From: a virus
Strand: one strand, 5' to 3'
Virus record (IMG/VR): IMGVR_UViG_3300028591_004246
Coordinates: 1 to 64,000 of that record
Length of the DNA: 64,000 nt
Made by a program: the position numbers and the translations under genes. A model generated the notes under the pieces. The model did no database searches, had not been told where the DNA came from, and was given only the letters and a program-made list of their open reading frames with translations. This document shows, in pieces, positions 39,945-40,610 of this stretch (position 1 is its first letter; every line of letters starts with the position of its first letter).

Positions 39945-40610
39945 TGACAAGAGGGGACTTCAAAGAAACCGCGGAAAACTTTGAAGAGTGGTAACCGGCT
40001 CTCAGCGGCCTAGGAGACAAATACGGAATCCTAGATAGCGCGTGCCACGAAAGGAGTCATGACCTTTCTAAACAGCGAGAGATAGAATAATGAGGTGGTC
40101 TCTCGGGAAGTGTTACCTAAGTCAATTATTATCTGAGTCTGGTTTTCCTCAGATATAAAGTTAAAAAAGAAAAGTCCAATGTCTGTTACTCCACAGGCCA
40201 CAAAAGGAGAAAAGACTTGGCCGTGAGAACGAGTCTATATGAAAGAACTCTCATATTTGTTTAGTTGGAGATACGGTATCGAAAGCCGTTTATCCCGATT
40301 ATACTGGGATAATAGTTTAAAAGGTAAAAATATCAACTAACAAGCGCTTTACTCACATAGAGAGGACAGCTGTGTTGGATCAGTCCAATCAGTTGCGCAA
40401 GTGGTAGGAAAGGAGGCATCCGAAACTACTGCGACATGGATACATAGAAGAGCCTTCACGTGGCGTATCTGTTTTTACTAATCTTCTTAATAGCCGAAGA
40501 GACGGCCTTAGCATTTTAGCTAAGAGAATGTACCGCGAGAGATCGGACGGGTGAAACGATAACATCCTGAAAACAACATTAGGAAAGTAGACTCGCAACG
40601 CTTTCCAATA
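39945..40610 (+). ncRNA. large structured ncRNA candidate (ornate, GOLLD/ROOL-like class)
   Basis: About 660 nt with no ORF, and GC much higher than the genome. Many local hairpins with GNRA loops (cttcaaag/ctttgaag, cggtatcgaaagccg, tcccgattatactggga). It sits directly after a promoter and between tRNA clusters. Confidence 0.4.

Follow-up and report, generated by a model that had tools for sequence, protein, structure and literature searches.

Large ornate RNAs of bacteria and phages are rare, with only a handful known (GOLLD, ROOL, OLE, raiA and HEARO). Cryo-electron microscopy has revealed that several of them are RNA-only multimers, and ROOL and GOLLD, which occur in phages and prophages, form RNA-only nanocages (Kretsch et al. 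2025, PMC12286853). Theta ribozymes have as their published setting the 3' end of a tRNA, where they are linked to tRNA 3'-end processing, and the members that are not associated with tRNAs were left unexplained (Kienbeck et al. 2024, PMC10879173). Bacterial Y RNAs, including YrlA (RF02553), are bound by Ro60 (Rsr) and measure 80-130 nt, and their genes usually lie no more than about 4 kb from that of Ro60, with both on one strand (Chen et al. 2014, PMC4201824). Here we compare with these systems a large non-coding RNA (ncRNA) encoded at 39943-40437 on the plus strand of a 64,000-nt stretch of phage DNA (positions 1 to 64,000 of the IMG/VR record IMGVR_UViG_3300028591_004246; hereafter the window, to which all coordinates refer unless another contig is named). 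A preliminary description of this DNA had singled out the interval 39945-40610 as a candidate large ornate ncRNA.

A conserved structured RNA in a phage tRNA island

The RNA, of about 495 nt, extends from an inferred 5' end to a predicted ribozyme cleavage site and represents a genuine, conserved and structured ncRNA family that is absent from Rfam 15 (the unnamed candidates of Fremin et al. 2023 were not compared). The members of this family are large (0.5-0.9 kb) and come from phages that are AT-rich and rich in tRNA genes and that, in some cases at least, recode TGA. We read the RNA as a new class of ornate phage RNA that resembles ROOL and GOLLD in setting and style. The complete explanation that we favor, and that we consider probable from the sequence comparisons, is that the RNA belongs to a hitherto unclassified family of large structured phage ncRNAs and would be released by a ribozyme, associate through a palindromic loop (L1) and act in trans.

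In addition to near-identical copies (L001 and L008), homologues of the RNA were found in six other lineages (L002, L003, L014, L166, L181 and L218), so that the family spans seven lineages in about four clades, all of them uncultivated phages. These homologues were reached by two routes. The first relied on the upstream gene for a 176-aa protein: proteins with 61-66% identity are encoded in two Logan assemblies (L002 and L003), where a homologous non-coding stretch follows, and L014 emerged from among 80 IMG/VR loci encoding more distant homologues. The second route employed degenerate DNA patterns derived from the conserved 5' domain of the RNA and yielded L166, L181 and L218. Among the 80 IMG/VR loci, the RNA is present only in L014 and in L013, a near-identical relative of the window, and it is found in none of seven ENA/Logan loci that also encode distant homologues of the 176-aa protein; this protein is therefore not a dedicated partner. 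Searches of other collections added little. GenBank phages gave no match to the RNA of the window, L014 or L002 (blastn, distant mode); a scan of JGI metagenomes with a pattern from block Y, a conserved central element described below, returned one true match (L008, 98% identical) and five chance matches; a scan of GTDB genomes with a 5'-domain pattern returned 18 chance matches and no prophage copy; and IMG/VR scans with block Y, J6/0 and three-way-junction motifs revealed no members beyond L013/L006, L014/L114, L166, L181 and L218.

The strongest evidence of a conserved structure comes from the 5' domain, D1 (39943-40127; 185 nt), which consists of eight helices, a pseudoknot among them, and is closed by P0 (39943-48 with 40121-26). 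The other helices are P1 (39958-65 with 39979-86), a tentative P2 (about 39996-40008), P3 (40010-15 with 40029-34), P4 (40049-54 with 40063-68), the pseudoknot P5 (40045-48 with 40095-98), P6 (40076-82 with 40099-105) and P7 (39990-95 with 40112-17). The comparison was made domain by domain because large insertions render a whole-RNA MAFFT alignment unusable. Across the seven sequences, 26 of the 38 D1 pairs show compensatory changes in which both sides are altered; 90.3% of the cells are paired, against 32-55% with slid partners, and values as high as these never occurred in 500 shuffles, a control known to be optimistic for related sequences. Helices P1, P3, P4 and P6 contribute four to six compensatory pairs each. 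Between the P7 of the window (GUAAC/GUUAC) and that seen elsewhere (GCAAC/GUUGC) there is a C-G to U-A change, and the CCAC/GUGG of P5 in the window has CCAG/CUGG as its counterpart in five of the other six lineages, the sixth, L003, being offset in the alignment. The long-range complementary segments noticed in the preliminary description are accordingly genuine and covarying, as seen in P0, P7 and P5. When the fold of the whole RNA is constrained to the supported helices, its energy is -128.1 kcal/mol compared to -130.9 kcal/mol for the minimum-free-energy fold, only 2.8 kcal/mol costlier, and the two agree at 91% of the positions.

A covariance model of D1 (R1), built from six sequences that do not include L218, scores 159-178 bits on these six (166.6 bits for the window) and 93 bits on L218, which fits every D1 helix with new pair types. 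The G-U pairs in D1 and in the ribozyme arise only in the plus-strand reading, which places the RNA on this strand. The same model detects a second, divergent copy of D1 (D2) inside L002 (1938-2133) and L003 (2414-2609); both D2 copies are closed by UUGAC/GUCAA and each has its own palindromic CGGCCG loop.

The central and 3' parts of the RNA, all on the plus strand, also contain conserved elements. A central region with two hairpins (40133-40201) consists of hairpin X (40133-37 with 40148-52), which is followed by an A-rich tail and recurs as a module in all clades, and hairpin Y (GUCUGU at 40181-86 with ACAGGC at 40193-98), which is followed by the conserved CACAAAAG; hairpin 40181-40198 together with CACAAAAG constitutes block Y, with 92-93% identity to L002, L003 and L218. 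Further downstream, a three-way junction (40262-40339; 88% identity to L218) comprises a closing stem (40262-67 with 40334-39), a first hairpin (40273-76 with 40286-89) and a second hairpin (AUCCC at 40292-96 with GGGAU at 40306-10) that is fully compensatory in L218, where it reads ACUUC/GAAGU. The 3' region (40360-40432) contains the conserved GAGAGGACAGCUG, a hairpin (CAGCUG at 40367-72 with CAGUUG at 40390-95) and a terminal stem (GUGGUAG at 40401-07 with CUACUGC at 40426-32), in which a G-C pair becomes A-U in L218. This region of the window aligns with part of D2 of L002 and L003.

Transcription of the RNA is predicted to be driven by a TG-extended sigma-70-type promoter (TTGACA-18-TATAAT; 12/12 consensus positions) at 39909-39938 on the plus strand, the element that the preliminary description had placed upstream of the region. 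The start inferred from it, at about 39943-39946, falls on the first helix of the RNA, such that the first base of P0 coincides with it, and an equivalent promoter is present upstream of every homologue. The elevated GC content was also correctly noted (42.6% over 39945-40610 compared to 30.6% in the window), as was the presence of tRNA genes on both sides, namely, tRNA-Leu (39183-39266) upstream and tRNA-Met (40778-40853) downstream, with a 176-aa and a 56-aa open reading frame (ORF) intervening between them and the RNA. The central proposal, that a phage tRNA island harbors a promoter-driven, large and structured ncRNA, is backed by the homologues, by covariation across the seven lineages and by the lack of coding potential. 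Other details have to be revised. The interval of about 660 nt is not a single unit; it consists of the RNA up to 40437, a theta-type ribozyme (40438-40487), a feature not previously noted that is predicted to set the 3' end, and an unconserved stretch (40488-40610), the last approximately 125 nt being an unrelated leader. The statement that no ORF of at least 60 aa occurs on either strand is literally untrue given a 93-aa TTG-initiated minus-strand ORF (40389-40670) in the mechanical list, which is neither conserved nor beyond chance. Likewise, the claim of many GNRA tetraloops is not established: four such loops are closed by at least three pairs, compared to 1.5 expected (p about 0.06), and none of them caps a covariation-supported helix of the 5' domain.

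Loop palindrome and 3'-terminal ribozyme

The loop L1 contains the palindrome CCGCGG (39969-39974, plus strand), with runs of A on either side, which makes it a candidate site for a symmetric kissing loop. In all seven lineages, L1 is palindromic although its sequence varies: CCGCGG in the window, L003 and L014, CGGCCG in L002 and L218, and CCUAGG in L166 and L181. The palindrome is 6-10 nt long, being extended to 8 nt in L003 and to 10 nt in L002, and the self-duplex energies range from -8 to -16.7 kcal/mol. In the variants, positions 2 and 5 are swapped and the adjacent positions 3 and 4 are doubly changed; since adjacent bases cannot pair within one chain, the covariation of positions 3 and 4 would reflect pairing between molecules. 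The close relatives L002 and L003 differ in L1, which implies that the switch occurred more than once. Covariation that preserves a loop palindrome is the argument that has been made for the symmetric kissing loops L21a of GOLLD and L9.3 of OLE (Kretsch et al. 2025, PMC12286853). By the same logic, L1 suggests a symmetric intermolecular kissing loop and hence homodimers or larger assemblies of the phage RNA; dimerization is what we infer from the sequence variation, and assembly of a higher order is speculation. A similar arrangement exists in the dimerization initiation site of HIV-1, where a GC-rich 6-nt palindrome flanked by adenines is located in a hairpin loop and natural variants switch palindromes, as is the case for L1. 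The origin and context of the two elements are unrelated, however, and nothing hints at packaging of an RNA genome in the phage.

Immediately downstream of the large RNA, we identified a minimal HDV-like ribozyme of the theta type (40438-40487, plus strand), a P4-less nested double pseudoknot with P1, P2 and P3 in the canonical order. P1 pairs 40438-43 with 40465-70 and includes the G1-U wobble (G40438-U40470), P2 pairs 40446-51 with 40482-87, and P3 pairs 40452-54 with 40462-64 and is capped by L3 (UUCACGU); J4/2 is CUAA, the first base of which is the catalytic C at 40478. The element parses as GGAUAC-AUAGAAGA-GCC-UUCACGU-GGC-GUAUCU-GUUUUUA-CUAA-UCUUCU. In six copies, all 84 of 84 cells are paired (100%), nine of the 14 pairs are compensatory and G1-U is invariant. 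Weak Rfam matches to CPEB3 and drz-agam-1 fall on this element, and the sole result of a permissive Rfam search of the flagged region was the weak CPEB3 (HDV-like) match at 40426-40487. Given that HDV-like ribozymes cut at their own 5' edge, the predicted cleavage between U40437 and G40438 should make the 3' end of the large RNA, which should terminate at U40437 with a cyclic phosphate. Such a ribozyme terminates the large ncRNA in six of the seven lineages.

The same ribozyme block, which is the most conserved one on the 3' side, also stands alone directly after tRNA genes, at 39113-39171 (plus strand) in the window, 1 nt past tRNA-His (39039-39112), and in L002 (4673-4724) past tRNA-Thr; thus, in a phage that is recoded, a second copy abuts the 3' end of a tRNA, in the setting already published. 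The copy that follows the large RNA shares with theta ribozymes (PMC10879173) the order and lengths of P1, J1/2, P2, P3, L3, P1.1, L4 and J4/2, along with the G1-U wobble, a UYCNCGY L3 loop and CUAA with the catalytic C. It differs in that it follows a 495-nt ncRNA rather than a tRNA, and so belongs to the non-tRNA-associated group, and in that its P1.1 has a single Watson-Crick pair; in addition, the published set comes mostly from Bacteroidota hosts, whereas here the source appears to be the ruminant gut and the host Gram-positive. The exact ribozyme sequences of the window were not found in the portions of the supplementary files on theta ribozymes (PMC10879173) that were covered by the search.

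Two features of related loci are of note. The ribozyme of L166 (6422-6500) has a P4-like insertion of about 35 nt, the other copies being minimal and P4-less. In L063 (4786-5023) and L075 (7863-8556), another unassigned RNA with a common 5' part contains a tmRNA-tag-like frame (AAAPKGASPLAQF*) and has a theta ribozyme at its end; a phage tmRNA is present in L004 (4555-4822).

Alternative identities and the Ro60 system

At gathering thresholds, the only Rfam families found over the window are tRNAs and one ROOL RNA. The latter (RF03087; 41280-41927, plus strand) is full-length, scores 298 bits, has a perfect promoter (41018-47) and lies about 800 nt downstream of the large RNA, with which ROOL co-occurs in both the window and L218. 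The earlier suggestion that the flagged region occupies the typical setting of GOLLD and ROOL is literally correct as regards ROOL, but for a separate neighboring gene. GOLLD (RF01998) has no match at E up to 10 in the window (39700-40800), in L014 (4100-5400) or in L166 (5690-6715), and ROOL has none in the flagged region although the same search finds it at 41280-41927; the four identities entertained previously for this region (GOLLD, ROOL, group I/II intron and Y RNA) are all without an Rfam 15 match at E up to 10. In its likeness to ROOL and GOLLD (PMC12286853), the RNA combines a length of 0.5-0.9 kb, location in a phage tRNA island and a strong promoter with many helices, a pseudoknot, variable insertions and a hairpin-loop palindrome that covaries while staying palindromic, as in GOLLD L21a and, with the same signature, OLE L9.3. 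The setting, the similar size and the palindromic loop covariation would fit a highly divergent GOLLD or ROOL variant beyond the reach of the Rfam models. We nevertheless consider such a variant very improbable because three divergent members give no match even at E up to 10, a canonical ROOL is encoded in the same window and another in L218, and R1 does not match the ROOL gene. The RNA further differs from ROOL and GOLLD in that it has no detectable sequence or structure similarity to their Rfam models, accompanies ROOL instead of replacing it and derives its 3' end from a predicted self-cleaving ribozyme; in some members the 5' domain is duplicated or a tRNA mimic is present, and oligomerization of these RNAs is only predicted. 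Slightly less improbable is regulation in cis, with the region acting as a 5' leader for the small ORF and the tRNA-Met/Arg/Trp cluster downstream; this would account for the shared strand, the lack of an intrinsic terminator between the promoter and the ORF, and the structured stretch 40488-40621 that ends in a ribosome-binding site (RBS). This reading conflicts with the fact that the downstream gene differs in every lineage, that the predicted ribozyme would sever the conserved RNA from what follows, and that conservation resides in the 5' approximately 500 nt rather than in the ORF-adjacent stretch. A protein-coding gene with recoding, or the remnant of a group I/II intron, has a close to negligible probability, although the phage reassigns TGA and a mechanical 93-aa ORF exists on the minus strand. 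No frame stays open across the region in any of four codes (11, 4, 15 and TAA-only); stop-free runs in the window RNA and its six homologues are no longer than in shuffles, and their frames and strands differ; substitutions track base-pairing and not codon patterns. Neither Intron_gpI nor Intron_gpII gives a match at E up to 10, and what borders the region is an intact 176-aa ORF and a promoter, not exon halves.

The relation to the Ro60 system is more intricate. The phage encodes a TROVE/Ro60-like protein (21767-23218, plus strand; PF05731 and a weak vWA_Ro60 match), the first gene of a three-gene block (21767-26737, plus strand) that continues with genes for a 497-aa and a 270-aa protein, both conserved; Pfam and PHROGs yielded no function for these two or for the 176-aa protein. 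In the window, 16.7 kb separate the end of the TROVE gene (23218) from the start of the RNA (39943) on the same strand. In L166, L181 and L218, the order is TROVE, 497-aa, 270-aa, RNA, with about 3.8-4.5 kb from TROVE to the downstream RNA and both on one strand; in L014, the last two genes of the block (497-aa and 270-aa) are visible. The RNAs of L014, L166, L181 and L218 contain an inserted permuted tRNA mimic (T arm, closed acceptor stem, D arm), which in L166 (6211-6266) matches positions 29-81 of the Rfam YrlA model with E = 3.4e-5 and in L014, L181 and L218 was recognized by inspection. No such module was detected in the window RNA (39943-40437), with no YrlA match and no T-loop discernible by eye, and L002 and L003 also lack it, so that the core of the family is not a Y RNA. 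Thus, the Y-RNA alternative raised in the preliminary description is not supported for the window copy, with its missing module and its distance from TROVE, and what survives, by way of the four relatives, is a possible functional link of the RNA family to the Ro60 system.

The corresponding proposal holds that the Ro60/TROVE protein of the phage would bind the RNA as an oversized, Y-RNA-like partner or scaffold and that the complex would serve RNA quality control or repair during infection. It is compatible with a ribozyme-released, self-associating RNA, and we regard it as a tentative possibility. The presence of a TROVE protein with a weak Ro60 vWA match, the synteny in L166, L181 and L218, which approximates the usual proximity of Y RNA genes to Ro60 on the same strand (PMC4201824), and the YrlA-type tRNA-like domain in four members all argue for it. 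The window RNA is four times the length of any Y RNA and far removed from TROVE, the D1 core has no counterpart in Y RNAs, three lineages lack the tRNA-like module, and the synteny is limited to two clades with compact genomes. The GNCGAA(N)G motif does not occur in the first 200 nt of the RNA, its only instance being GCCGAAG at 40494-40500, downstream of the ribozyme, which leaves no convincing copy near the 5' end. Furthermore, a simpler partner is at hand: a separate small YrlA-like tRNA mimic (41947-42050, plus strand), located directly 3' of ROOL, is a plausible partner of the TROVE protein, with 32.6 bits compared to a gathering score of 69 and E = 2.3e-5 in a local search of 441 nt. Beside the TROVE gene itself no Y RNA was found, and 23219-23841 holds small ORFs.

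As for the ribozyme-released, L1-associating RNA that we prefer, several observations weigh against it. With only seven known lineages, which group into about four clades, few independent events underlie the statistics, and the shuffle control is, as mentioned, lenient. Within D1, the pseudoknot P5 rests on a single compensatory event and P2 is weak (70% paired); the z-scores of the folds, -2.1 over the entire region and -1.6 in D1, are modest. The L1 palindrome could instead be a protein-binding or DNA-level site. The P1.1 of the window ribozyme is GU opposite UC, that is, one Watson-Crick pair and a U-U, compared to GG/CC in L002 and L014 and GA/UC in L063, and on account of this single pair its activity could be reduced. 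Finally, L003 has no ribozyme within 250 nt of the RNA, where its contig ends.

Proposed mode of action and genomic surroundings

Under the explanation of a ribozyme-released, trans-acting RNA, the host RNA polymerase would transcribe the locus from about 39943, and the ribozyme would cut before G40438 to generate an RNA of about 495 nt with a uniform 3' end bearing a 2',3'-cyclic phosphate, while itself remaining on the 5' end of the downstream ORF-tRNA transcript. Two RNA molecules would then associate via the GC-rich 6-nt palindrome of L1, and the resulting homodimer might in turn enter a larger assembly of the kind known from GOLLD, ROOL and OLE. The RNA would act in trans within a phage program of tRNA and RNA metabolism, alongside ROOL, the YrlA-like RNA, the Ro60/TROVE protein and an RNA ligase. 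A further possibility, which we put forward with considerable reservation, is that the RNA would be self-assembling and ribozyme-tailored and would form a multimeric platform from which YrlA-type tRNA mimics are presented to the Ro60/TROVE surveillance or repair machinery. If so, the puzzle of the role of giant RNAs of the ROOL/GOLLD type would be joined with that of phage Ro60 and Y RNAs, and the non-tRNA-associated theta ribozymes would acquire their first biological role.

The locus would add another ornate class, unrelated in sequence, beside ROOL in the same operon region and, owing to its compact size and its mutable putative dimerization signature, offers a test case for how and why phages build RNA assemblies. 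It also suggests that orphan theta ribozymes may make the 3' ends of large ncRNAs. The modular evolution of the family, with duplication of a domain and gain or loss of a Y-RNA-type tRNA mimic, points towards RNA repair or quality control.

The genomic surroundings are those of an AT-rich phage that recodes TGA in a code 4-like manner. Reading TGA as sense increases the stop-free sequence in runs of at least 200 codons from 31.8 kb to 40.6 kb under code 4, and many ORFs with in-frame TGA exist side by side with a 96-nt tRNA with the anticodon UCA (37867-37962, plus strand); this suppressor is one of 25 tRNA genes located at 36.7-43.9 kb. Near-identical contigs include L001 and L013 in IMG/VR (97.6-98% identity) and L008, a JGI contig of 148 kb. 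Sample names point to the ruminant gut as the source and, together with an LPxTG-like protein, to a Gram-positive host.

Downstream of the ribozyme, the stretch 40488-40621 (plus strand) folds into three hairpins followed by the RBS AGGAG and has a fold z-score of -2.85. None of the relatives has an equivalent of this stretch, the resemblance to L218 and L002 stopping at the ribozyme, and it is treated here as a lineage-specific structured spacer or 5' UTR, that is, the local leader of the small ORF that follows (40622-40792, plus strand) and not part of the RNA family. This ORF is 56 aa long when read with code 4 and 47 aa with code 11, shows a weak zinc-ribbon match and runs into tRNA-Met; it is not conserved beside the RNA in the other lineages, where the downstream gene varies.

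On the other side, a tandem upstream promoter of the same sigma-70 type (TTGACA-18-TATAAT, 12/12; 39827-39856, plus strand) drives a short leader that runs into the main promoter. A short repeat, AGAGUGAUUG..AGUUACUUC and its variants, occurs on the plus strand at 39863-39897, 41056-41082 and 41156-41181, as well as in L002 (2610-2650); it sits just 3' of consensus promoters and could represent a small RNA or a hairpin in a 5' leader. RNA ligases are enriched in phages that carry theta ribozymes (Kienbeck et al. 2024, PMC10879173), and the window encodes an RNA ligase (PF09414; 10647-11618, plus strand) along with a SpoU-type RNA methyltransferase (48636-49217, plus strand).

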